From: Mustelus asterias
Taxonomy: Eukaryota
Direction of reading: 5' to 3'
Length of the DNA: 64,000 bases
NCBI RefSeq assembly: GCF_964213995.1
Contig: NC_135802.1
Coordinates: 57,474,001-57,538,000 of the forward strand
Shown piece after piece: positions 8,456 through 53,228 of the stretch (its first letter is position 1; the number at the start of each line of letters is the position of its first letter). Made by a program: the position numbers and the translations under genes. The notes beneath the pieces are model-generated. The model was not told the origin of the DNA, searched no databases, and was given only the letters and a program-made list of their open reading frames with translations.

Positions 8456-9045
8456 TCTGAGATGATTCCTGCAGGAGTAAGAGGTACATTTTCCAAAAGA
8501 TTATAATCCTTTCCTTAACAGACTGAGGAGTATCCACATTCTTAACTGCTGAAATTAGTGATCTGACAGACTGGATTCAAACTCAGCTTCAACTGTTAAA
8601 TGGGCATTGAATCTGGCATCAAGTGTGCCAGTCTGTTCCTCCCCAGTTGGGATTGTTACCAGTGTGATCTTTATCTCAGAGGAAATGACTTGGAATTTTT
8701 ATGATCTTCCCATTAACGATAATTAATCCACATTTTCATTTTATGAAGTGCACAATTTTAATCAACATTGAATTGAAATGTTTCTGATCTCCACTAGGTG
8801 TTCCTGTTCGATGTTCACAGGCATTGTGATTTTATTAAAAAATGATCAGAATTGAACTTGAAATGTGATTAATTATTGTCATTTGTTTACAATCTTGAGC
8901 ACTTTTTAAAGTCTCTGTAAAAAACCAACACATAGCTGTTGTCTGCGCACAATAAGTAAGCATTACAAAGTCACTAACTATTTCCACCTTCAGTACATAA
9001 TCAATAAATTAGTATCATTTAAACTATAAGCATGTCTTTCTGCAG

Positions 9046-10319
9046 GTGATGTACATGCTGTCTTGTGTAGAAATGGAAAAGGTTACCGTTTAACTGAAAA
9101 CCACAGCACCTCAAACCGTAAAGAATGTAAACGTATTCTTCTGGCTGGTGGAACAATCAGTAAAAATGAACAACATGGGCTTGTAGAGGGATTCATTCAA
9201 TCAACACGAGGACTTGGATTCCATGGAGACCCCAAGCTTAAAACATCTATTGTACCAATACCACATACTGCCTCTGTCCCTATTGATTCCTCATGCCAGT
9301 TTCTTGTTCTAGCTTCAAGTGGATTTTGGAAAGTGCTAAGTAGACATGAAGTAGTTTCAATCTCATTGGAAATGCTTTCTTTTTATTTAAGATCTTTTCA
9401 CACACAATCTAGAGAAATCCGCTCAGTAGTTCATTCTTTACACGTTATGGAACCAGATGTACACACTGTTGATAAAAGTTCCACTGTAGCACAGTTGCTT
9501 GAGGAGTTTTCACAGCAGGGACATAGAGATGCTTTGATGTCCCTTAAACGTTTGTTTGAGGAGGTATTAATAAGTAAGAAACATGGCTGGAAGACCATGA
9601 AACCTCTAGCCAAGCGTTTAAAATTAATGAAAGATCGTGATTCTCTTTGGCAAGCCATGCGTAATTTACTTCAGAACATTCCAAGACAGGAAAAATCCAA
9701 GTCACCAATTGAAAAGATTATAGAAGTTGTGTCAAAAGAGCTGGAACATGACAGTGGTATATTCGTGAAAAGTGTGCCCAAAGATACTTTAAATGAGAAG
9801 AACAGTGAAGACAAGACAAAAGCAGACAATTTTCTTGAGAAGTCTCTACCAGAAAATGAAGGTAAGGACAACGGGACTTTCATAGAACACAAGGAGCATT
9901 TAACAAAAGAGAAATATAATGATAACAAACTATCTGTGATTCCTGAGGCTGAGTTGTCTTCACACACCGAGAGAATAAATGGTCACCTAAGCCAAGAGGA
10001 TATATCCAAAAAATTAAAGAAGCAGAAATCGGTGATCTGGCATCCTGAGCAAATTGAACCAACTCCTTCAGAAAAGTTTGCCATTGAAAAATTAGATGAA
10101 GAAGCTTATCTTATGAATCAGGACGAAGCCAGTGAAGTTTCAAGTCAGGAAACACCCGATGAACGACAAGAAATTCAATATGAAACTCTAGCAAATACAA
10201 TCAGCAAACGATTAGTTGAAATTGCTAAACAAGCAGGAGCTTCTGACAACATAACAGTGCTCATATTGTTGCTTCCTGGATGTAATAAATTAATCCCTAA
10301 AAGAGAAGAAATGACATAA
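9046..10319 (+). CDS. PP2D1: PP2D1 terminal coding exon
   Basis: Acceptor tctttctgcag|GT at 9045/9046 continues the frame as G-DVHAVLCRNGKGYRLTENH, then TRGLGFHGD, QFLVLASSG and GASDNITVLILLL. Spliced CDS from ATG 114 is 2235 nt (744 aa). Confidence 0.9.
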
Positions 10320-11793: not shown

Positions 11794-12707
11794 AGTGAAG
11801 TTCACAAACAGGGCATATATATATACTCCTCAGAAGACAAACATGGGGCACGGCGGACAGAGTACCCTTCGTCGTCCAGTACTTCCCCGGAGCAGAGAAG
11901 CTACAACATCTTCTCCGGAGCCTTCAACATGTCATCGATGAAGACGAACATCTCGCCTAGGCTATCTCCACACCTCCACTACTTGCCTTCAAACAACTGC
12001 GCAACCTCAAACAGACCATTGTACGCAGCAAACTACCCAGCCTTCAGAAGAACAGTGATCACCTCACCACACAACCCTGCCACAGCAACCTCTGCAAGAT
12101 GTGCCGGATCATCGACACGGATGCCATCATCTCACGTGAGAACACCATCCACCAGGTACACAGTACATACTCTTGCGACTCGGCCAACATTATCTACCTG
12201 ATATGCTCAGGAAAGGATGTCCCGAGGCATGGTACATTGGCGAGACCATGCAAACGCTACGACAACGGATGAATGAACACCGCTCAACGATCACCAGGCA
12301 GGGGTGTTCCCTTCCTGTCGGGGAACACTTCAGCAGTCAAGGGCATTCAGAATCTGATCTTCGGGTGAGCGTTCTCCAAGGCGGCCTTCACGACACATGA
12401 CAACGCAGAATCGCTGAGCAGAAACTGATAGCCAAGTTCCGCACACATGAGGACGGCCTCAACCGGGATCTTGGATTTATGTCACACTATCTGTAACCCC
12501 CACGACTTGCCTGGGTTTACTAAATCTCACTAACTGTCCTGACTGGAGACAATTCACACCTCTTTAACCTGTGCTTAACCTTCTCTCCACTCATATTGTC
12601 TGCATCTGTAAAGACTTGATTACCTGTTAATACTCGCATTCCAACCATTATCTTGTCAATTGAGTTTGTGTCTATATATGCTCTATTTGTGAACTGAACT
12701 CTTCACT

Positions 12708-12742
12708 CACCTGATGAAGGGGCAACGCTCCGAAAGCTCGTG
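12708..12742 (+). ncRNA. Minimal type I hammerhead ribozyme
   Basis: CAC-CUGAUGA-A-GGGGC(aac)GCUCC-GAAA-G-CUC-GUG; predicted cut after 12739. Confidence 0.85.
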
Positions 12743-14139
12743 CCACCAAATAAACCTGTTCGATTTTAACCTGCTGTTGTGAGACTACTTACTGTCAAAA
12801 GGCAGTGGTAGCAGAGTCTTTGAATATTTTTAAGGCAGAGCTAGATAGATTCTTGATTAACAAGGGGGTGAATGATTATTGGTAGTCAGAAATGTGGCAT
12901 TGAGGTTACAACCAGATCAGCCATGATCTTACTGAATGGCAGCACAAGCTTGAGGAGTCGAGTGGCCCATTCCTGGTCCTAATTCAAATGTTCATGTGAC
13001 CTCTGATTCTAGATTCTCCCATAAGAGGAAGCATCCTTTCCATATCCATCCTGTCAAGCCCCTCAGGATCTTATATTATTCAATCAAGTCACTTCTTACT
13101 CCTTTAAACTCCAGCAAGTACAAACCTGACCTGTCCAAACTTTCCTCATAAGACAACCCACCCATTCCTGGTTTTAGTCTAGTTAACGTTCTCTGATCTG
13201 CTTCCAATGCATTTATATCCTTCCTTACATAAGGAGAACAATACTGTACATAGTTCTCCAGATGTAATCTCACCAATGTCTTGTATAGCCTCCCTTCTTC
13301 TGAATTCAATTCCCTTCTCAATAAATCATAATTCTATTTGCTTTTCTAATAACTTGTTGTACTTGCATACCTTTTGAGATCCCTCTGCATCTCAGAGCTC
13401 TGCAGTCTCGCACCATTTAGATATGTTGCTTTTCTATTCTTCCTGCCAAAATGGACAAATTCACATTTTCCTACACTTCAGTCACTTAACCTATCTATAT
13501 TCCCTTGTAGCCTCCTATGTTCACTTCACAACATACATTCTTGCCTATCTTTGTATCAATAGCAAATTTAGCAGCTATACCTTCAGCCCTTTCATCCAAG
13601 TCATTGAGCTGATTGGGATGAGGAAAGGGTGTGAAAAGAGGCTTTCGGGAATAATCCAGGCACAGGGATTCTGGGGATGGCGAAGTCAGGCTCCTGGCAG
13701 TGACTTGGATTGGGAGAGGCCAAAGGCTTCCTTGTGAAGCTTGCCTGTTTTAAGCACACCTGTTATTTCTGACCCATAATGGCTGAATAAAGACTAGACA
13801 TTTAGTACCTTAAGGAGTTGGCAGTTCCCACTTCAGATCAGCTGCCAGGCTCCCTTTCAGTTCCAGTTAAATTTAAGTTCTGAGGCCAATAATGTCATCA
13901 TGTGTACACCTTCCCCACCACTGCCAATGTTTTGCAGAATCCTCCTGAGTGGCTTGAGTATATTAAAACTTACAAGTCAGGTGAATGGGGTTGTGTTACT
14001 TGATCCTGATATTTTAATCCCTAGGGATCTTGATCCGTCTATTGTGGGTGTGTTTGGGTGATGGTGTGGGAGATTAACATTGAGGCCATAGTGTTAAAGT
14101 GAAGATTGGCTTGAGTGAGGTACTGGAGGACTTTTTCCT

Positions 14140-15339: not shown

Positions 15340-16858
15340 AAACGAGTCGTCCGGACTTGGAAAAATTCATCAACTTCGTCTCCAGTTTCTATCCCTCCAT
15401 CACCTTCACCTGGTCCATCTCAGACACTTCCCTTGACCTTTCTGTCTCTATTTCCAGCAATAAACTATCTACCAATATCCATTACAAGCCCAGTGACTCC
15501 CACAGCTATCTGAACTACAGCTCTTCGCACCCTACATCTTGTAAGGACTCCATCCCTTTCCCTCAGCTCTTTCGCCTCTGGCATTGTTCTGATGATGCCC
15601 CTTTCCAAGGTGATGCTTCTAATATGTGTTCCTTCTTCCTCAACCGTGGTTTCCCACCTACAGTTGTTGACAGGGCCCTCAATAACGTGCGGTCCATCTT
15701 CCGCGCCCTGACCCTCACTCCCTCCCCTCCCCCGCAGAACAAGGATAGAGTCCCCCTTGTTCTCACGTTTCACCCCACCAGTCTCCGCATGCAAAGTATA
15801 ATCCTCCGCCATTTTCGCCAACTCAAGCGTGATGCCACCACCAAACACATCTTCCCATTACTCTGTCAGCATTCCGCAGAGACCGTTCCCCCCAGGATAA
15901 CCTAGTCCACTCCTCCACTATACCCAACAACTCTTCCCATCACCCACGGCACCTTCCCATATAATCCCAGGTGTAACACCTGCCCCTTTACCTCTTCCAT
16001 GCTGACCATCCAAGGCCCAAAACACTCATTCCAGATTAAGCAGCGTTTCACTTGCATCTCTTTCAATTTGGTCTATTGCATTCGCTGCTCTCAATGTGGT
16101 CTCCTCTATATTGGAGAGACCAAACGTAGACTGGGTGATCACTTTGCTGAGCACCTTCGGTCTGTGTGCAATCAGGTCCCTTACCTTCCGGTTGCTTGCC
16201 ATCTTAACACATAATCCTGCTCCCATGTCCACATGTCTTTCCTTGGCTTGCTGCAATGTTCCAGTGAAGCTCAACGCAAACTGGAGGAACAGCATCCCAT
16301 CTTCCCACTAGGTACTTTACAGCCTTCCGGTCTTAACATTGAATTCAACAACTTCAGATGATTAGCTCTACCCCACCTCGACGCCTTTGTTTTCATTTTA
16401 TTTAGTTTTCAAATGTTCTCTACCTTTTATTTCTTTATTGTCTTTATTTTTCTTTCCCCCCACTCTTTCCCCTTATTTTACCCCCTTTGCTTCCCTTTTT
16501 CTCAACTTACCTCTCCCAATCCTCACCCCCCCCTCCCCCAACAGCTTTATCTGTCACAGCTTACCCTCTGATTTTAATTTCTCTGCCATTTGGCCATTCA
16601 CACCTTCTATTCCATCTATGGACTGCCATTAGCAACCTTTCCCCGTGTTTTTATGGCCATGACTCATCTTTCATTCCCTCACCCCACAGTATAAATAGCT
16701 CCCACTTTCTATGCCTTTTAGCTTTGACAACGGGTCATCTGGACTCGAAACGTCAGCTCTTTTCTCTCTTTGCAGATGGTGCCAGACCTGCTGACCTTTT
16801 CCAGCATTTTCTCTTCTGATTTCAGATACCAGCATCCGCAGTAATTTGCTTTTATCCT
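15340..16858 (+). mobile_element. 5'-truncated Penelope-like element (family B): RT thumb/linker plus GIY-YIG, frameshifted
   Basis: HYKPSDSHSYLNYSSSHP..KDSIP, FLNRGFP, RVPLVLTFHP, LVYCIRCSQCGLLYIGETKRRL..AEH; pyrimidine-rich 3' region ending in a hammerhead motif. Confidence 0.92.
16720..16758 (+). ncRNA. Minimal type I hammerhead ribozyme, U3-A8 core variant
   Basis: AGCU-UUGACAA-C-GGGUC(aucug)GACUC-GAAA-C-GUC-AGCU. Confidence 0.72.
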
Positions 16859-17289: not shown

Positions 17290-18400
17290 TAGAGTCATAG
17301 AGGTTTACAGCATGGAAACAGGCCCCTCGGCCCAACTTGTCCATGCCGCCCTTTCTTTTTTAAAACCTCTAAGCTAGTCCCAATTGCCCGCATTTGGCCC
17401 ATATCCCTCTAAACCCATCATACCCATGTAACTATCTAAATGCTTTTTAAAAGACAAAATTGTACCCGTCTCTACTACTACCTCTGGCAGCTTGTTCCAG
17501 ACACTCACCACCCTCTATGTGAAACAATTGCCCCTCTGGACACTTTTGTATCTCTCCCCTCTCACCTTAAACCTATGCCCTCTAGATTTAGACTCCCCTA
17601 CCTTTGGAAAAAGATATTGACTATCTAGTTGATCTGTGCCCCTCATTATTTTATAGACCTCTATAAGATCACCCCTCTGCCTCCTACGCTCCAGAGAAAA
17701 TAGTCCCAGTCTATCCAGCCTCTCTTTATAACTCAATCCACCAAGTCCCGGTAGCATCCTAATAAATCTTTTCTGCACTCTTTCTAGTTTAATAATATCC
17801 TTTTTATAATAGGGCGACCAGAATTGCACACAGTATTCCAAATGTGGCCTTACAAATGTCTTGTACAACTTCAACAAGACATCCCAACTCCTGTATTCAA
17901 TGTTCTGACCGATGAAACCAAGCATGCCGGATGCTTTCTTCACCACTCTGTCCACCTGTGACTCCACTTTCAAGGAGCAATGAACATGTACTCCTAGAGC
18001 TCTTTGTTCTGTAACTCTCCCTAATGCCCTACCATTAACTGAGTAAGTGCTGCCCTGGTTCAATCTAGCAAAATGCATCACCTCGCATTTGTCTAAATTA
18101 AACTCCATATGCCATTCGTCAGCCCACTGGCCCAATTGATCAAGATCCCGTTGCAATTGGAGATAACTTTCTTCACTGTCCACTATGCCACCAATCTTAG
18201 TGTCATCTGCAAACTTACTAACCATGCCCCTTATATTCTCATCCAAATCATTAATATAAATGACAAATAACAGAGGACCCAGCACTGATCCCTGAGGCAC
18301 ACTGCTGGTCACAGGCCTCCAGTTTGAAAAACAACCCTCTACAACCCTCTCAAGAAGCCAATTTTGTATCCATTTAGATACCTCACCCTGGATCCCGTGG
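17290..18400 (-). mobile_element. CR1/HER1 LINE ORF2 3' part
   Basis: ORF 17515-18312: VPQGSVLGPLLF, KFADDTK, HLEYCVQFWSP. Confidence 0.95.
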
Positions 18401-18896
18401 CAATTTTAATTGCCACTGTTACATTTTGACCCACTTGTTTCAGCAACTGCTCTATACACAAGTACACCTCAATTTTATTGCTTTCTTCCAAGTACTGAAG
18501 AGAGAACTATTTGGAATGTAGTTAGAATTATTCAGTGCTGTAATACAGTATTAGGGTGACAACTTTACTCTGGAAAAGCATGAACATTGAGGCCCAAAAG
18601 AACATTTATTTTCTTCCCAGTGTGAGAGAGGTGTGTGTATATCTGTGTTTGTAGGAGAGAAGGGTGTGTGTCCGTGCGTGCCCGTTTGTCTGTGCAAAGA
18701 AGAGTATGTGCGCATGCACGTCTGATATAAGAATCCAGATCTCCAGCAACACTCCTAATATTTAATGAATTTGTGAGCAATAGAAACAGCATCACTCCTC
18801 CAATTATATTGATAAAAAGGTAAGACTTAAGTACTTGTTGAATAAAATAAATTATAAATGCATGCATATATGAATGTATACATATAAATGTATACA

Positions 18897-20665
18897 TATA
18901 GAACAGTACAGCACAGAACAGGCCCTTCGGCCCACGATGTTGTGCCGAGCTTTGTCTGAAACCCAGATCAAGCTATTTCCTCCCTATCATCCCAAAGTAC
19001 TCCATGTGCCTATCCAATAGCTTCTTAAATGTTCCTAAAGTTTCTGACTGCACTATCCCTGCAGGCAGTCCATTCCACACCCCAACCACTCTCTGAGTAA
19101 AAAACCTACCTCGGACATCCTTCCTATATCTCCCACCATGAACTCTATAGTTATGCCCCCTAGTTACCGCTCCATTCACCCGAGGAAATAGTCTTTGAAC
19201 GTTCACTCTATCTATCCCCCTCATTATCTTATAAACCTCTATCAAGTCTCCTCTCAACCTCCTCCGCTCCAAAGAGAAAAGCCCTTTCCTCATAAGACCT
19301 ACCCTCCAAACCAGGCAGCATCCTGGTAAATCTCCTTTGCACTCTTTCCAGTGTCTCCACATTCTTCTTGTAGTGAGGTGACCAGAACTGCACACAATAT
19401 TCCAAATGTGGTCTCACCAAGGTCCTGTACAGTTGCAGCATAACCCCACGGCTCTTAAACTCAAACCCCCTGTTAATGAACGCCAACACACTATAGGCCT
19501 TCTTCACGGCTCTATCCACTTGAGTGGCAACCTTCAGAGCTCTATGGATATGAACCCCAAGATCTCTCTGTTCCTCCACATTCTTCAGAACCCTACCTTT
19601 GACCCTGTAATCCACATTTAAATTTGTCCTACCAAAATGAATCACCTTGCATTTGTCAGGGTTAAACTCCATTTGCCATTTCTCAGCCCAGCTCTGCATC
19701 CTATCTATATCACTTTGCAGCCTACAACAGCCCTCCACCTCATCCACTACTCCACCAATCTTGGTGTCATCAGCAAATTTACTGATCCACCCTTCAGCCC
19801 CCTCCTCCAAGTCATTTATAAAAATTACAAATAGCAGAGGACCAAGCACTGATCCCTGTGGCACTCCGCTGGTAACCAGTTTCCAGTCCGAAAATTTTCC
19901 ATCCACCACCACCCTCTGTCTTCTGTTAGATAGCCAGTTACCTATCCAATCGGCCAAACTTCCCTCTATCCCACAGATCCTTACTTTCTTCATAAGTCGA
20001 CCATGGGGGACTTTATCAAACGCCTTACTAAAATCCATGTATATGACATCAACTGCACTACCTTCATCTACACGCTTAATTACCTCCTCAAAAAATTCTT
20101 TCAAATTTGTGAGGCAAGACTTGCCCTTCACAAATCCGTGCTGACTATCCCGGATTAATCCGCATCTTTCTAAATGGTCGTAAATCCTATCCCTAAGGAC
20201 CTTTTCCATCAACTTAGCGACCACCGAAGTAAGACTAACCGGCCTATAATTACCAGGGTCATTTCTATTCCCTTTCTTAAACAGAGGAACCACATTCGCC
20301 ACTCTCCAGTCCTCTGGCACCACCCCCGTGGACAGCGAGGACCCAAAGATCAAAGCCAAAGGCTCTGCTATCTCATCCCTTGCCTCCCAAAGAATCCTAG
20401 GATATATTTCATCAGGCCCAGGGGACTCATCAACTTTCAGTTTATTCAAAATTGCAAGTACATCTTCCCTCCAAACATCTACTTCCTCCAGCCTATCAGC
20501 CTGTGACACCCTCTCTTCCTCAAAAACATGGCCCCTCTCCTTGGTGAATACCGAAGAAAAGTATTCATTCATCACCTCTCCTATTTCTTCTGACTCAATG
20601 CATAAATTCCCACTACCGTCCTTGACCGGCCCCAACCTCACCCTGGTCATTCTTTTATTCCTCAC
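18897..20665 (-). mobile_element. CR1/HER1 LINE ORF2 RT fragment with one frameshift
   Basis: ORF 19229-20737: NYRPVSLTS, QHGF, DFSKAFD, GVPQGSVLGP, FADD; C-terminus in ORF 18973-19395. Confidence 0.96.
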
Positions 20666-21300
20666 ATAATACTTATATAAATTTATATAACTTATATTCT
20701 TATATAAATTTGTTATTGTGTGTTTGTGCAAAAACATTCAATCTTTTGTGGTTTAATTCTTGAAATAATGTTTCTCAGGGTTTCACCAGTATCCCGGGGA
20801 GGTCAAAATAATTCTGTGGCTGGAAAAGTTAAGGAAACCCGACTTTAAGTGAACACATTGTTAAAACACCATTAAATGTGTTGCCCACCAATTGAATTTA
20901 AAGTCAGGGAGTAGGAATATGGGCTTTGATTTAGACTGAACCACTATTGTTGGCTCCAGACACACAGGAGGTTGGAGTTGCGATGCAAGTTTTGGTGGTG
21001 TCCAGAATTCCAGTGGGAGAATTAGAGATCCTAACTGTAATTGTACAGATTATTGAATGTGAAGAAAAATACAACTTTCCGTTAATTTATCTTTTGATAG
21101 TATATTAGTGAGATGAATCAAAACATTCTAAATTATTCAGATTTGGGTAAAAGAATAACCAAATTTTACAATTCTCAAAAAGATTAAGTAGAAAATTTCC
21201 CGAGAGATTTTGAGGTGAAAAATCAGTTAAAATATGTAAATATAAAAAAGGTATTTTATCTAAATAAAGTTTTTACAAAATTGATCATATTCAGAGAGAT

Positions 21301-26164: not shown

Positions 26165-27430
26165 AATTCCCTCGCTGACCTCTGTCCTTGGCTTGCTACA
26201 CTATTCCAATGAAGATCGACGCAAGTTTGAGAAACAGCATCTCATTTTTTAATTAGACACTTTAGTTTTCCAGGCTCACATTCAACAATGTCAGATTATA
26301 ATTTCTATCCCCTTTTATTTTTGGATGACACCTTATGTTTCTTGTCCCATTACCATCTCCTATGCCTTCCACCATTATCTCTCATTTAAATCTCCCCTGC
26401 CTTCCATCCTAACAGTCTTAAAACACATTACATCTTCAATTTTCTCTAGTTCTGATGAAAGGTCAGAACTGGGAGTTGGCATGAAACTGCAGGAGACTGT
26501 CAGGAGCTGAGGAGCACCTATAAATAAAGCCCAGGGATTGCAGTGTGACCTACCTTGCTGGGAGTTGGAGTTGAGTAGATGGGTGCACTATTTCACCTGC
26601 AGGGAGGCAGCAGTGAAACAAAAGTGCAGTGGTGACTTCACAGGCAGATTGGCCGGAAAGTGCTCAGTTCAAGGGACAGTGTGTCGAAAAGCAGCTTAGG
26701 ACACAGGAGTTAAGGTAGATCTATAAATAAGAACTAAGTCCTTAAAATAAGTAAAATTTTAAAATAAAAAAATATATATCTGAAACACATACCCGTGTGG
26801 TTACGAAGCATACAGCTTTTAGTCAGTGGTACTAGCATTCAATAAGCACAGTACTCCAAGTTAATTAAAGTTATCAAATTAAGTTACAGTCAGAAGTTTA
26901 CAGCACGGAAACAGGCCTTTGGGTCCAACCTATCCAAGTTAACTAAATAACAAGTTAGAATGGCAAGGCAAGTGAGATGTTGCAACTGTGGAATGAATGT
27001 GTTTTGGGCACCAAAGCAATCCAGCACTAGGTGGACATGGAAAGGATGTTTCCTCTTGTGGGGAACACAGGTCATCCTTTCAGGACAGATGAGAATTTTT
27101 TTTTGTCAGGGTTGTGCGAAGTCAGGACTCTGCCTTAGAAGTCAGTGGAAGCAGGGTCATTGAATATTTTTAATGCAGCAGTAGATTGATTTCCTTGCCT
27201 AACAAAAATCCACCGTTATTGGGGGTAGATGGGAATGTAGAACTCAAACACAAACAGATCAGCTATGATCTTGTTGAATGGCAGAGCTGGCTCGAGGGGT
27301 TGAATGGCCTATTTCTACTCCTATTTCATATGTTTGTTATGTCAACTTCAAAACATTAACTGTGTTTCTCTCCACAGATGCTGACTGGCCTTGCCGAGTA
27401 TGTGCAGCATTTTCTGTTTTTTATTTTATA
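26165..27430 (+). mobile_element. Penelope family-B 3' relic split by an internally deleted CR1 (about 26470-27340)
   Basis: RRKFEKQHLIF remnant; CTGATGA at 26452; PLE tail CTCCACAGATGCTG resumes near 27345. Confidence 0.6.
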
Positions 27431-30524: not shown

Positions 30525-31760
30525 GAAGACCATAAGACATAGGAGCGGAAGTAAGGCCATTCGGCCCATCGAGTCCACTCCACCGTTCAATCATGGTTGA
30601 TTTCAACTCCATTTACCCGCTCTCTCCCCATAGCCCTTAATTCCTCGAGAAATCAAGAATTTATCAATTTCTGTCTTGAAGACGCTCAACGTCTCGGCCT
30701 CCACAGCCCTCTGTGGCAATGAATTCCACAGACCTACCACTCTCTGGCTGAAGAAATTTCTCCTCATCTCTGTTCTAAAGTGACTCCCTTTTATTCTAAG
30801 GCTGTGCCCCCGCATCCTAGTCTCCCCTGCTAATGGAAACAACTTCCCTACGTCCATCCTATCTAAGCCGTTCATTATCTTGTAAGTCTCTATCAGATCT
30901 CCCCTCAACCTCCTAAACTCCAATGAATATAATCCCACGATCCTCAGACGTTCATCGTATGTCAGGCCTACCATTCCTGGGATCATCCGTGTGAATCTCC
31001 GCTGGACCCGCTCCAGTGCCAGTATGTCCTTCCTGAGGTGTGGGGCCCAAAATTGCTCACAGTACTCCAAATGGGGCCTAACCAGTGCTTTATAAAGCCT
31101 CAGAAGTACATCCCTGCTTTTGTATTCCAAGCCTCTTGAGATAAATGACAACATTACATTTGCTTTCTTAATTACGGACTCAACCTGCAAGTTTACCTTT
31201 AGAGAATCCTGGACTAGGACTCCCAAGTCCCTTTGCACTTTAGCATTATGAATTTTGTCACCGTTTAGAAAATAGTCCATGCCTCTATTCTTTTTTCCAA
31301 AGTGCACGACCTCGCACTTGCCCACGTTGAATTTCATCAGCCACTTCTTGGACCACTCTCCTAAACTGTCTAAATCTTTCTGCAGCCTCCCCACCTCCTC
31401 AATACTACCTGCCCCTCCACCTATCTTTGTATCATCGGCAAACTTGGCCAGAATGCCCCCAGTCCCGTCATCTAGATCGTTAATATATAAAGAGAACAGC
31501 TGTGGCCCCAACACTGAACCCTGCGGGACACCACTTGTCACCGGTTGCCATTCTGAGAAAGAACCTTTTATCCCAACTCTCTGCCTTCTGTCTGACAGCC
31601 AATCGTCAATCCATGTTAGTACCTTGCCTCGAATACCATGGGCCCTTATTTTACTCAGCAGTCTCCCGTGAGGCACCTTGTCAAAGGCCTTTTGGAAGTC
31701 AAGATAGATAACATCCATTGGCTCTCCTTGGTCTAACCTATTTGTTATCTCTTCAAAGAA
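30525..31760 (-). mobile_element. Young 5'-truncated CR1 LINE with an uninterrupted ORF2 3' half
   Basis: ORF 30603-31802: DFQKAFDKVPH, GVPQGSVLGP, FADD through to the natural stop. Confidence 0.96.
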
Positions 31761-32669
31761 CATTGTTGGAAAAAAAACTAGACACTGGTTTGGCAAGATC
31801 ATGAGGGTTATTTGAGGCTTGTCATTTTAAGAGTGTGCTGTGCTTTAATTCTGTTCAAAGTTGTACCCCTGCTAAGTAACACATATAACATTATGGCTCA
31901 CAAAGCTCTGAATACCAAATACATTCAGTTCCTGCCAGGTGTGGGGGCTCCATTCCTGCAAATTCTCGAAGTGTGAAATTGCAAACGATGAACCCGCTCA
32001 TGAGCAGAGTTGGCACATGCGCAGTGCTCACTGGCTGTGCAGGAAAGGAGTGTTTAACATTCTAAGTCAGGAATATGTGAAATTTTATGCCACAAACTGT
32101 GATTACGTTTACAATTGCATTCGCGCAGGCAAACAATTTTGTAATAGAGGGGCTAGCAAACAAGGAGTTGTTTGTGCACAGAAATTACAACCTAAAGTTT
32201 TACTGATGACTAAAAACAGTTTAGATCACCTTACAGGTCATCAGATATTATCTTAAAAAATTAATCCTACCACAAAGCTAAAAGACAGGTGAAAGACTAT
32301 TTTTTCAAGGGACCTTTTGTGACTCATTGCTTGCTTATGGATTTTTTTTTTTAACCTAAGAGAAGGATGTAATAGCCAGGTATGTTGATTTTAAAAGAGG
32401 AAATTTGAAAAGGTTTTCAATTTTGGACTATAGCGAAAAAGTTTCTAAATATTGAGACAATCCAGCTGTGAAAGGAGGGAGCTATGACATTCACTGAATT
32501 ATACATTGAGTTAATTTGTGCCAGTTGCTATATTGCGTAACAGTGCATCTTCCTTTTCAGGTAGTTTCAATCCAACGTTTTGAAAATATAAAAGGAAATC
32601 TTAGCTACTGCTCTACTTCAAAAAGAAAATCAAAGAATCTGTTACTTGATTGAGAATTATGTATTTGTA

Positions 32670-35690: not shown

Positions 35691-36214
35691 ATCAGTTGCA
35701 AGTCTAATCAGCAGAACAGGCATGATTTTGGGAGAAACCCTCAGTTTCATATAATAGCTATCAAGCTTGTCATACTATATCCTTGCATCTATGTGAAGCA
35801 TTTTTTAAATCAAATTCTCAAAGCACTGAAAATGCCCTACTCAATTTTCAGCTCAAAACATCCTGCTATTCCACACACAGCCTAGCATGCTTGACCTATT
35901 TGTTTAGAGTAGTTTTGCCAATTAAAAATCTCTAGCTTGTTTCTAAACAGTAATGCCAGCAGATAATTCAGCTCAATGTTCTCCCCAGATTTGGTGCTTC
36001 CCACAGCACACAGGATCTTAACATTTTAGTACCATTCAAACAAACAAAGCTGTACTTGATGGTCACAAAACACACTATATGAGGTGCTTTCAATGAAACA
36101 AAGTTTGAATATTCTACATTTACTGGAAATACTATTTTCAGTCAATCTGAATCTCTGAAGTACTCCACCAAAATTAAGAATGCAGCTGTAATGTAGTTGT
36201 ACAACTCCACTTAC

Positions 36215-36366
36215 ATCATTTGTAATGTCGTATACCACTATAGCAGCCTGCGCTCCTCGATAGTACATTGGGGCCAAGCTGTGATATCTTTCTTGTCCTG
36301 CTGTGTCCCATATTTCAAATTTCACAGTTGTGTCATCCAGGCATACAGTCTGAGTTAGGAAAGCAG
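36215..36366 (-). CDS. RAB5A: RAB5 coding exon 2 (152 nt), (A)[50 protein letters not shown]
   Basis: tttcag acceptor, gtaagt donor; WDTAGQE G3 motif. Confidence 0.97.
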
Positions 36367-36994
36367 CTGAAACAGTTGATGCAGTTAAAAATTTGAATAT
36401 TTTTTGAACTGGATAGCACAAACAAAATTTGTCAGCAATACAAAAGCTTAAGAGTTACAAAAATTTGCTTGCTTCAAAGAAGAGTTTTTATTTACACATT
36501 TAAAATTATGCATTCAAATTCAGGAATATGTATCAAAGTCATTAAAATAGTTACAAGCAGCATTTTTATTCATTGAGGACTCAATTAGAGTTAACCAGCT
36601 TGGAGCACTTCAATATCAACTGTTTGACCTTGTAGTCTATGGTCACAACCACCATTTTCGTCCAAACCAAACAAAACTGATTCACAAAAATAGAAATTAA
36701 AATAGTAAATGAAAGTAATTTGAAACCAGCTTCTCAGATTAGCAGATGCAAATGAACCTCCAAAGCTGAATTTCAACAGTAATCTTAAAAGTATTACTTG
36801 GCATGTTTAGTTTTAAAATCAGGCACATATTGTTTGTCTTTGTGTTGCATATGCTATGATAAACGTTTCATTACAGAATTTCCCTGCATGAGATGCAAAA
36901 CAAATATTTTGTTTTAAAAAGTTGGGACTTATACATTGTTTACTTCTCTACTTGAGAAACAAATTTAGGTTTTCAAGCTCCATGAGAGAATTTA

Positions 36995-38472: not shown

Positions 38473-39249
38473 ATATAAACCCAACAGTTAAGAGTGGACA
38501 GGGTCTGGGTAATGGTGGGCGGAAAGGTCCAATGTCCAGAAACAGACGAGTCAGGGTGGCTTGCAAATGCCATTAGTAAGGATGAATGAGGTTCTGTTCA
38601 AGGCCTCGCTGTGATTAAGGTAGCAGCAGAGCAAGAGTCTGAGGGAAAAAAAGTGCACCTCACGATTTTGCTCATTGGCTGGATGTGGAAAATGCATTCA
38701 GCTTGTTTTATCACATTTGAATTGGTTGCATTAATTCTATTCAAACTGAGTGAACAAACTTTATTTTAAAAAAGTAAGGGTTTAAACTACGCAAATTCCA
38801 AAAGAGATGAGAACATACTGAATGGAAATGAATTAGTTCAAAACCTAGGTTACAGCAGATATATTACTTCAAATAGTAAATTTCCATGTTTAAATTGTTT
38901 AGCTTCAACATGGGGGCCTGTTTAGCATTGAATTTCAGTTTAGACTTGTTTCATGCAGGAATGATTGTAGGGCCGTTGGCATGACTGGCATTTTGGGAGT
39001 GGACTTTGCCATGCTCTGATTCACCTTCTAGAGGCCGGCAGCCTCTGCAGCACACTGACTCTCCTTCCCTCTCCTCCAGATTGTGCCTTACGTCCTGCAA
39101 ATCAAAGTCACTTGTCTGCATCTTGCCATTCAACTCCAAAGAATGCTCAGGGGAGGGAAGTGACACACATTAGAGGCAGGGAGCTGGAGGTTCAGCAAGA
39201 GAGTGGGTCTGCAACAAGCGGGAAAGTGAGGGAGCACCAGTGACCATGA

Positions 39250-40045
39250 ACACTTTGGAGGAAATAATAACAAATGGGATTACTATCTCAATGGAAACAA
39301 ATTAAAACATGCTACCGTGCAAAGGGACCTGGGGTTCCTTGTGCATGAGACGCAAAAGCCCAGTCTGCAGGTACAACAGGTGATCAAGAAGGCAAATGGG
39401 ATGTTGGCCTATATCGCGAGGGGGATAGAATATAAAAGCAGGGATGTCTTGATGCACCTGTACAGGGCATTGGTGAGGCCGCAGCTGGAATACTGTGTGC
39501 AGTATTGGTCCCCTTATATGAGGAAGGATATATTGGCATTGGAGGGAGTGCAGAGAAGGTTCACCAGGTTGATACCGGAGATGAGGGGTTTGGATTATGA
39601 GGAGAGGCTGAGGAGATTGGGTTTGTACTCGTTGGAGTTTAGAAGGATGAGGGGGGATCTTATGGAGACTTATAAGATAATGCGGGGGCTGGATAGGGTG
39701 GAGGCGGAGAGATTCTTTCCACTTAGTAGGGAAGTTAAAACTAGAGGACACAGCCTCAAAATAAAGGGGGGTCGGTTTAAGACAGAGTTGAGGAGGAACT
39801 TCTTCTCCCAGAGGGTGGAGAATCTCTGGAATTCTCTGCCCACTGAGGTGGTGGAGGCTACCTCGCTGAATATGTTTAAAGCGCGGATGGATGGATTCCT
39901 GATCGGTAAGGGAATTAAGGGTTATGGGGATCAGGCGGGTAAGTGGTACTGATCCACATCAGATCAGCCATGATCTTATTGAATGGCGGGGCAGGCTCGA
40001 GGGGCTAGATGGCCTACTCCTGCTCCTATTTCTTATGTTCTTATG
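39250..40045 (+). mobile_element. Young CR1 3' fragment, near-identical to 52434-53228
   Basis: ORF 39317-39952; about 6 differences in about 790 bp by eye. Confidence 0.96.
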
Positions 40046-47499: not shown

Positions 47500-47665
47500 C
47501 AACAGGAGAGAAGAGAGCCAACATTGAGTTTAGAGGACCCTTTGTCAGAACTCGAAATATTGGCTCTATTCTCTCCCCACAGATGCTGTCATACCTGCTG
47601 AGATTTTCCAGCATTTTTTGGTTTTGTTTCAGATTTCAGCATCTGCAGTATTTTGCCTTTATTAT
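47500..47665. mobile_element. Penelope family-B terminus remnant with an inverted junction and a dead hammerhead
   Basis: GAGCCAACATTGAGTT..AACTCGAAATATTGGCTC hairpin; minus-strand CUGACAA core lacking GAAA; PLE tail follows. Confidence 0.65.
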
Positions 47666-50165: not shown

Positions 50166-51574
50166 GTCCTAATAAGTCACCAGATTCAATCGTGCGAAAT
50201 TAATACTTGTTCCTGGTCTCCTCGTCAGTTTTAGGCTAAAAAAAAAACAAGACTTTTCTTAAAGCAATGGTAATGTAAGAATATACAATCCTGCCAGGGC
50301 TTTATTGAAACGGGTAAATAATCTCCAAAAATGTTCCATTCCTGTACCAAAATTATGAACGATGTAAAAATACAAGATGATTTTCAGTTAATCAAATACC
50401 GAAAAAGAGCATTTGCTGAAAATCTGAAACAAATAGGAAATACTGGAAATCTACAGCAAGTTAAATCAGTATTTGTAAAGAGGAAAGACATTAATGTTTA
50501 GTGTACATCAGAACTGGAACTACCTACCCCACCCCAGAATAAGTGAAATCCAAGGCATTTTTGATTCTACCCAATTGAAATAACTGGGAAAAATAGAAAA
50601 TTCTCACGGGTGCATAGTAAAACTTTTGCTAACAACCAGGATGTTTTTCTCTGCTTGTTCCTTCAAGATGTTGTCAAGTAAGCCTTTACGCCACAAGCCT
50701 GGTTTCTTCTATCATTTCTCCACATTGTTCTTCCAAATGGCTAGCGCAACAGCTAATTGGTTTGATTACTCTTCAATAACTAAAGGTGCAAAAAGTGAAA
50801 TAAGGCTCAAAAATTGGAAGCAAAGTACAGAAGACGGAAAAGAAAATCAATTCAAAATTCTGAGAATTGGTTCTTTGATACCCACCTTGCAGCACTTCAG
50901 ATGGAAAGTGCTTCTGGAGTGCCCAATTGTTTGTGCAATTATTCAAATGTACCGCTTGAATCTCAGACTAAGGTGGTCTCAGATTGGATACTTATTCTAT
51001 TGAGTTAAGTGGTATCAAGTGGATTGAAATTGGGATGCTACAATTAGTACTCCAGGTACAGGAAAAGTCAGTTCTGAAACAAATTTTGAAAAAAGCCATT
51101 TCTAAACTTTTTACAAAGTCCAACTTTGCCTGAAATATTGCTTTATTCATTCTACTGCACATTTCCTACACAATAAACAAGATGAGGGTAAAAAGTGAGC
51201 CAGTGTGGTTATTCCACTGGGGGTCTTGTTTCAGAAACTCTATTTTTAAAAGACAAAATGATCTATTACCACCTTGAACATCAAGATTACGGAAAAATTG
51301 GAACAACATGTTTTAAGCAAGTTGCTATATAATTGGACAACAAATCTCTGTTCACAAAACCTATTTTTAGCTCAAATTTGTTTGACAGGGTTAGTCCTTG
51401 ACAGGCTCAGTCCTCTGATGTTTCCATTAGCAAGTATTCAGACTATGCCTAATTCATATCAACAACTTCCTCCATTCGTTATCCAATCGCGTCTACTTTC
51501 ATCAATAACTCCACTTTACATTCTTATGATCAATCTCCATAATTCAGTGCAGTGGAATTCGTGTTTGCCTTAGT

Positions 51575-53228
51575 GGGATAATGCAAATCATATTAATGTT
51601 ACCAGAGAGGCAGTGCTGGGTAGACTAATGGGACTGAAGGTGGACAAGTCCCCGGGTCCGGATGGAATGCATCCCAGGGTATTGAAAGAAATGTCAGAGG
51701 TAATAGTGGATGCGTTAGTGATTATTTATCAAAACTCGTTGCATTCTGGGGTAGTGCCGGTTGATTGGAAAACGGCAAATGTTACGCCGCTGTTTAAAAA
51801 AGGAAGGAGACAAAAGGCGGGTAACTATAGGCCGGTCAGCTTAACGTCTGTAGTAGGGAAAATGCTGGAATCCATTATTAAAGAGGAGATAGCAGGGCAT
51901 CTGGATAGAAATGGTTCGATCAATCAGACGCAGCATGGATTCATGAGGGGAAAGTCGTGCTTGACGAACATGTTGGATTTTTATGAAGATGTGACTAGGG
52001 CGGTTGATGGAGGAGAACCGGTGGATGCGGTGTTTTTGGATTTCCAAAAGGCGTTTGATAAGGTGCCCCATAAAAGGCTGCTGAAGAAGATTAGGGCACA
52101 CGGAGTTGGGGGTAGTGTGTTAAAGTGGATTGGGGACTGGCTATCCGACAGGAAGCAAAGAGTCGGAATAAATGGGTGTTTTTCCGGTTGGAGGAAGGTA
52201 ACTAGTGGCGTGCCGCAGGGATTGGTACTCGGGCCGCAACTATTTACCATTTATATAGATGATCTGGAGGAGGGGACGGAGTGTAGGGTAACGAAGTTTG
52301 CAGACGACACAAAGATAAGTGGAAAAGTGAATCGTGTGGAGGACGGAGAAGATCTGCAGAGAGATTTGGACAGGCTGAGTGAGTGGGCGAGGATATGGCA
52401 AATGGAGTATAATGTTGAGAAATGCGAGGTTATACACTTTGGAGGAAATAATAACAAATGGGATTACTATCTCAATGGAAACAAATTAAAACATGCTACC
52501 GTGCAAAGGGACCTGGGGGTCCTTGTGCATGAGACGCAAAAGCCCAGTCTGCAGGTACAACAGGTGATCAAGAAGGCAAATGGGATGTTGGCCTATATCG
52601 CGAGGGGGATAGAATATAAAAGCAGGGATGTCGTGATGCACCTGTACAGGGCATTGGTGAGGCCGCAGCTGGAATACTGTGTGCAGTATTGGTCCCCTTA
52701 TATGAGGAAGGATATATTGGCATTGGAGGGAGTGCAGAGAAGGTTCACCAGGTTGATACCGGAGATGAGGGGTTTGGATTATGAGGAGAGGCTGAGGAGA
52801 TTGGGTTTGTACTCGTTGGCGTTTAGAAGGATGAGGGGGGATCTTATGGAGACTTATAAGATAATGCGGGGGCTGGATAGGGTGGAGGCGGAGAGATTCT
52901 TTCCACTTAGTAAGGAAGTTAAAACTAGAGGACACAGCCTCAAAATAAAGGGGGGTCGGTTTAAGACAGAGTTGAGGAGGAACTTCTTCTCCCAGAGGGT
53001 GGTGAATCTCTGGAATTCTCTGCCCACTGAGGTGGTGGAGGCTACCTCGCTGAATATGTTTAAAGCGCGGATGGATGGATTCCTGATCGGTAAGGGAATT
53101 AAGGGTTATGGGGATCAGGCGGGTAAGTGGTACTGATCCACGTCAGATCAGCCATGATCTTATTGAATGGCGGGGCAGGCTCGAGGGGCTAGATGGCCTA
53201 CTCCTGCTCCTATTTCTTATGTTCTTAT
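51575..53228 (+). mobile_element. Young 5'-truncated CR1 LINE with an intact 507-aa RT ORF
   Basis: ORF 51613-53136: KSPGPDG, NYRPVSLTS, QHGF, DFQKAFD, GVPQG, FADD, natural stop and TTCTTATG tail. Confidence 0.97.

Follow-up and report, generated by a model that had tools for sequence, protein, structure and literature searches.

The window analysed here, a 64,000-nucleotide stretch of the Mustelus asterias genome, carries on its plus strand (16720..16758) a hammerhead motif whose core reads UUGACAA instead of the CUGANGA of strict search patterns. The two departures fall at positions 3 and 8, which pair with one another only in the active tertiary fold of the ribozyme (as described in PMC3884650), and covariation from C3-G8 to U3-A8 is reported for natural hammerheads, with in vitro activity cited (Perreault et al., 2011; PMC3088659). 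The locus raises the question of whether U3 and A8 are private changes of one decayed copy or the normal state of a Penelope-like element (PLE) family and, if the latter, how the two changes arose and whether selection has kept them.

Results

Letters and RNA folding agree with the initial annotation that the stems, the palindrome, GUC and the UUGACAA core are all present at 16720-16758, where they form a minimal type I hammerhead. Stem I is made by AGCT at 16720-16723 and AGCT at 16755-16758, and the core TTGACAA occupies 16724-16730, with U3 at 16724 and A8 at 16729. A base at 16731, bulged between positions 9 and 10.1, precedes stem II, in which GGGTC (16732-16736) pairs with GACTC (16742-16746) around a 5-nt loop, and GAAA (16747-16750), an ACGT palindrome (16750-16753) and GTC follow, with the predicted scissile bond after 16754. 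The predicted fold of the window copy recovers stems I and II. Like the published minimal hammerheads, this one has no helix III, a palindromic 15.1-16.1 (ACGU), an NUH triplet (GUC), a 4-bp stem I, a stem II opening with G10.1-C11.1 and one additional base between 9 and 10.1. Reading UUGACAA / GAAA, it lacks CUGANGA and departs at 3 and 8 in the manner of the published U3-A8 subtype: U3 and A8 are the family state, and the remaining core bases are intact. A scan of the window with Rfam at E<=5 returned seven weak hits and no hammerhead among them, so standard models miss the motif; the expectation that strict CUGANGA searches would pass over the whole family holds as well, since its core lies outside that pattern.

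Upstream of the hammerhead, the ORF list and its translation identify a 5'-truncated, decayed 3' part of a Penelope-like ORF (15347..16361, plus strand), comprising the end of the reverse transcriptase (RT), a linker and a GIY-YIG endonuclease. The ORF is interrupted by stops and frameshifts, most of the RT is absent from the window copy, and the alignment of family copies begins at about 15347. [quoted passage not shown] Of the Neptune/Nematis linker signature CX2-5CxxC, the CxxC is present upstream of the GIY-YIG core (15972-15983, plus strand), and the first cysteine is unseen in the decayed window copy. The hammerhead lies about 360 nt 3' of the GIY-YIG stop codon, in the terminal repeat of the PLE where minimal hammerheads are located, and is followed by the 3' tail of the element (16759..16856, plus strand), with family homology stopping at about 16855-16856, as contig loose ends indicate. 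Pyrimidine tracts ending in CAG, resembling 3' splice sites, are found in this tail at 16759-16780 and 16805-16826 and are kept in the two families described below.

The window copy is about 1.5 kb long, and its end branch in the endonuclease tree measures 0.07 changes per site. Within its hammerhead the sole private change is the bulge at 16731, a C on the plus strand where the family has A: family alignments give A in 29 of 30 best-hit copies, the remaining one being the window copy itself, and A accounts for 99% of contig depth. Folding predicts a pair between this C and G12 (16747), which would make stem II longer in the window copy. With no tandem partner, a broken ORF and the private bulge change, the window copy is probably inert. 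It sits between ORF pieces at 72-1091 and 9030-10319 (plus) and at 36026-36454 (minus), which resemble a gene with a PP2C domain and an exon of a Rab5-like GTPase. Several long pieces of non-LTR RT ORFs, which we take to be CR1-like, lie elsewhere in the window (17515-20737, 30603-31826, 39230-39952 and 51574-53136).

We refer to the U3-A8 family of the window copy as family A and to its C3-G8 sister as family B; the genome searched comprises 3.68 Gb. An upstream-anchored family-A pattern of 29 letters, in which positions 3, 7 and 8 were left free, had 2,072 exact matches genome-wide and none for the reversed control, so the motif exceeds chance. By hand count, 96 of the first 100 of these matches carry U3-A8. 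Across all 2,072, C3 occurs 18 times (13 with A8 and 5 with G8, the latter all carrying family-B flanks) and U3 occurs without A8 52 times (37 G, 11 C and 4 T). A second pattern, of 35 letters and with no upstream anchor, gave 6,876 genomic matches, 6,656 with U3 and 220 without. A8 was present in 99 of the first 100 U3 matches, and a hand count of the first 100 of the 220 non-U3 matches gave 47 C3-A8, 9 C3-G8, 29 G3 and 15 A3, a mixture of states that fits change after insertion. For a core-independent sample, 98 distinct copies were taken from the first 100 places among the 7,131 matches to a tail-anchored pattern; U3-A8 was found in 70 of the 77 copies that extend to position 3. Loop II variants of the family are also U3-A8 (10/11 and 7/9), and contigs of organisms B and D, built from reads that needed 92% identity, which favours family A, have no variant at position 3 or 8 at 1% of depth or more. 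U3-A8 is the fixed state of family A, which has at least 6,656 copies, and these counts dispose of the possibility that U3 and A8 are private to the window copy. In organism D, U17 makes up 96% of depth (run X7 on L056) instead of C17; U17 is the family-B state, and the U17 form of the U3-A8 family carried by this related organism possibly represents an earlier master of the A lineage.

A family-B pattern had 6,698 genomic matches, the first 100 of which, counted by hand, comprise 70 C3-G8, 16 C3-A8, 7 U3-G8, 2 U3-A8 (one of them a family-A copy) and 5 others. CA and TG occur in similar numbers among them (16 and 25), as the CpG decay of a CG master predicts, and a core-independent B sample with T7 in 20/62 and A8 in 15/66 agrees. 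Read from its copies, then, the master of family B is C3-G8, and the earlier attribution of CUGACAA in family-B copies to CpG decay is borne out. In older PLE families (1,046 matches) the core is usually CUGAUGA or CUGAAGA, and C3-G8 has been retained. The two window copies that the initial annotation had presented as related were quoted with the right letters but are not members of family A. One (26448..26466, plus strand; CUGAUGA letters at 26452) is half a hammerhead of an older PLE family that breaks off inside stem II, and the other lies in a fold-back insertion of family B (47512..47662), whose minus arm has the CpG-decayed CUGACAA at 47548-47542. Belonging to other families, they are not steps in the history of family A. 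Another PLE family in the window has its own minimal hammerhead, with CUGAUGA and an AGCU palindrome replacing stem III, at 12707-12795 (plus), 11790 (minus) and 1578 (minus).

The states at 3 and 8 were then placed on a tree of 306 nt of endonuclease, built from all 42 copies, out of 536 hammerhead-like matches in the loci, in which no less than 200 nt could be aligned within 520 nt of a hammerhead. The tree comprises an A clade of 19 rows (support 85/86), a B clade of 22 rows (100/98) and one CUGAAGA outgroup; support for A is modest, the bootstrap was yet to converge, and rooting depends on a single long outgroup row. Separate A and B clades beside a CUGAAGA outgroup suggest, as the simplest history, a single origin of U3-A8 on the branch leading to A. 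With one origin only, the change at 3/8 is a single event, so that the covariation which the initial annotation had proposed to test on the family tree takes the form of a U3-A8 clade of its own beside a C3-G8 sister and does not amount to statistical covariation. Two family-A copies, L009 and L089, with cores UUGAGAA and UUGACGA, share a long branch (100/100) and appear to be a divergent or recombinant sublineage of the family.

An order for the two changes had also been proposed, in which CpG decay of the CUGACGA core gave C3-A8 and C3U then rescued the pair. That the transposing lineage passed through C3-A8 in this way is compatible with the reading of U3-A8 that we favour below, and we rate it, as a statement about order only, at somewhat under an even chance. 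Mutational supply speaks for this path, A8 being present in 15 of 66 B copies as against U3 in 1 of 55, or in 219 of some 6,000. Yet there is no C3-A8 subfamily: the state is found in only 13 of the 2,072 matches, and its 47 occurrences among the first 100 of the 220 non-U3 matches stand beside the 29 G3 and 15 A3. Moreover, the C3-A8 copies have no common diagnostic sites, the mirror arm is still U3 in two of three tail-anchored cases, and a U3-G8 wobble intermediate, or a revived resting double mutant, fits equally well. Genome-wide pattern matches and flank alignments disclosed no family with a C3-A8 or a U3-G8 master. U3-G8 was considered as a master in its own right, its 37 matches exceeding the 13 of C3-A8, but was rejected, as no diagnostic site is common to the 19 matches that were aligned, one of which belongs to B. 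Among dead B copies, A8 occurs in 22 of 90 with U3 and in 16 of 86 with C3 (Fisher p = 0.37), the two changes being independent; the 90 are the first 100 U3 rows of 219 B matches after ten were dropped (7 with a family-A loop, 3 duplicates). With no intermediate family, and with U3 and A8 independent in dead B copies, the data do not establish the proposed order.

To place the hammerhead within the transcript, we turned to its upstream flank and to the positions at which copies begin. A TATAAA box (16690..16695, plus strand) precedes the first base of stem I by 30 nt, a spacing shared by 60/60 A, 14/16 B and 3/4 other copies having the box, with a spacer sequence that differs between families. 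Among the 98 tail-anchored A copies, 31 start at the first base of stem I (16720) and 51 within its four bases; 22 extend further upstream, and the start falls within the hammerhead in 19 and at the cut site in 3. In 39 further A copies, many of them mirror arms, 19 start at the stem I start and none at the cut site. Family B resembles A in this respect (40/92 at the stem I start), and in other organisms too the loose ends of contigs cluster at the first base of this stem. The genomic pattern suggests that 16720 is likely the transcription start, which would make the hammerhead the very 5' end of the transcript. A 3' splice site (pyrimidine-AG, 16712-16721) was examined as another account of these starts and rejected, since the copies keep the AG and have unrelated flanks; a start site fits better.

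The cut site left no comparable footprint, which speaks against strong catalysis. In family A it accounts for 3/98 and 0/39 starts, and 3 of the 22 internal starts is no excess (p = 0.16); two of these three are explicable by the repeated AGCT. Nor is the cut site among the six loose-end places listed per run for the organism contigs. An apparent footprint in family B was discarded: the five near-cut starts among 92 begin at the anchor, and four adjoin the 3' terminus of a different PLE, which makes them nested insertions. In four B cases the same CT just after the hammerhead is abutted, and in all the 3' end of the PLE family seen at 12707-12795 borders A or B repeats at six loci (L279, L283, L341, L342, L170 and L243); it is possible, judging from these junctions, that one PLE prefers inserting into another. 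Many short A insertions consist of two arms in head-to-head mirror orientation, with stem I's self-complementary AGCT at the centre (L188, L211, L219, L173 and others).

Between stem I and the tail end, a span of 135 positions, the majority sequences of A and B show 14 differences. The 39-nt hammerhead accounts for six of them: positions 3 and 8, two bases of loop II, N17 (C/U) and a single base of stem I (A-U/G-U). All six leave the fold intact. Both majorities retain the CpGs at G12 and in the palindrome, even though each of these bases has changed in 11-29% of copies. That the A/B differences spare the fold and that CpGs have been kept despite their mutability argues for purifying selection on the hammerhead fold, which likely acted in the transposing lineages. 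Intact ribozymes were found in 34 of 83 family-A copies and in 8 of 56 family-B copies. In a typical family-A copy the catalytic dimer has a predicted energy of -14.9 kcal/mol against -23.2 kcal/mol for the best predicted dimer fold, and in both families the catalytic dimer is predicted to lie about 8-9 kcal/mol above the best dimer fold, a gap that counts against the cutting proposed below.

Discussion

We conclude that the window probably holds a dead, 5'-truncated copy of an abundant PLE family with a minimal hammerhead in its terminal repeat, in which U3-A8 is the normal core, a derived compensatory swap of C3-G8 that was likely kept by purifying selection on the fold, and whose cutting is predicted to be slow, as a dimer, and probably protein-aided. 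Transcription would begin at the first base of stem I, 30 nt past the TATA box. Where elements stand in tandem, pairing of the 5' hammerhead with the 3' one through the ACGU palindrome would lead to a cut after GUC that releases unit-length RNA; such cleavage would need two hammerheads, probably together with the element's protein. Reverse transcription may begin some 100 nt downstream from the hammerhead, as it does in an anole element (PMC11167929), on a template that would usually be RNA with an intact cut site, either uncut or re-ligated. The double change itself is most simply read as the sum of two easy transitions, one by CpG decay at G8 and the other a C>T at 3, whose order the data do not fix.

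The U3-A8 pair was implied at first to be a novelty, and this it is not: the same covariation is already in PMC3088659 and, for PLEs, in PMC4209133. Perreault et al. give several U3-A8 examples in a broad collection, and the portions of PMC3088659 drawn on here do not describe family A. Closer to it are the U3-A8 minimal hammerheads reported from the pLTRs of Cercyon PLEs in Schistosoma mansoni, with about 1,300 hits (Cervera and De la Pena, 2014; PMC4209133). As described there, Cercyon has in common with family A a minimal type I fold without helix III, a bulged base before stem II, G10.1-C11.1, a palindromic 15.2-16.2 and a location in the PLE terminal repeat, and its core, too, was missed by the first descriptor used. 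Family A differs from it in its vertebrate host, its 5-bp stem II, a putative Neptune/Nematis-type endonuclease, its homogeneous set of at least 6,656 copies and a C3-G8 sister that shares its genome; PMC4209133, in the parts considered here, makes no mention of sharks. The literature covered, which takes in some of the key hammerhead papers, contained no shark-type U3-A8 PLE family, and the papers covered on TATA boxes and start sites contained nothing on TATA-to-hammerhead spacing. Family A is a new and very abundant example of a concept already published, so a specialist would not be surprised by it.

Functional work is available for the anole Poseidon element PAc, in which a hammerhead lies in the pLTR and an internal RT start makes the tail (Frangieh et al., 2024; PMC11167929). 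As reported there, uncut RNA is the main insertion substrate and the 3-8 pair is required, yet catalytic mutants insert normally in vitro and no RNA reads end at the cut site. PAc and family A share the pLTR hammerhead, but PAc belongs to the Poseidon clade, has a C3-G8 core and an ORF that starts inside stem II, and the swap tested in it was G3-C8, not U3-A8. In a pairwise scan of a type III hammerhead (PMC9901934), rescue is reported by G3-C8 only and by U3-A8 not at all; the two text supplements of that paper give no value for 3/8 mutants.

These studies bear on the earlier claim that U3-A8 implies selection on catalysis. Selection on the fold is supported, since the A/B differences spare it, but catalysis is not singled out over the fold itself or protein binding, given that one PLE inserts without cleavage in vitro. 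The hammerhead of family A could be a vestige that cuts weakly or not at all, its fold kept for protein binding, as an RNA 5'-end structure or for an overlapping promoter or start, with U3-A8 fixed by the hitch-hiking of two common transitions in one master. We regard this as unlikely. Neutral decay does often make U3-A8 (A8 occurs in 32 of the first 100 among the 219 B matches with U3), the anole PLE could insert in vitro without cleavage, the type III scan found no U3-A8 rescue, and cut-site starts amount to 3 of 137 copies. Against a vestige it can be said that, among the positions constrained by catalysis, exactly 3 and 8, which pair solely in the active tertiary fold, changed together when the equally mutable G12 and stem III CpGs did not, that N17 varied between C and U as the NUH rule permits, and that the U3-A8 swap recurs in unrelated PLEs (PMC4209133).

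More speculatively, and in our estimate with a rather low probability, the U3-A8 family may be a genome-scale natural experiment in ribozyme tuning, in which the hammerhead forms the first 39 nt of a capped transcript, the core has become slower and CpG-proof, slow 5' cutting spares the intact RNA preferred by the RT, and the swap helped the family to outgrow its C3-G8 sister and to keep many more of its genomic ribozymes intact (34 of 83 copies against 8 of 56). It is very improbable that the interrupted palindrome CTTTG-A-CAAAG across the core was simply perfected by quasi-palindrome template switching, without selection, for although the palindrome is directly visible in the 16722-16730 region of family copies and lies at the centre of fold-back insertions, dead B copies show no association of U3 with A8 (p = 0.37) and a competing CUUU/AAAG RNA hairpin, rejected on folding, is unpopulated (P = 0.00).

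A compensatory swap kept with its fold thus remains our preferred account of the core, and with this family the known U3-A8 hammerheads gain a very large vertebrate set. Descriptors with a fixed core, together with Rfam, miss thousands of motifs in this one genome. Finally, U3-A8 and C3-G8 sister families whose hammerheads differ at only 6 of 39 positions offer a clean natural pair in which the role of catalysis in PLE transposition can be tested.
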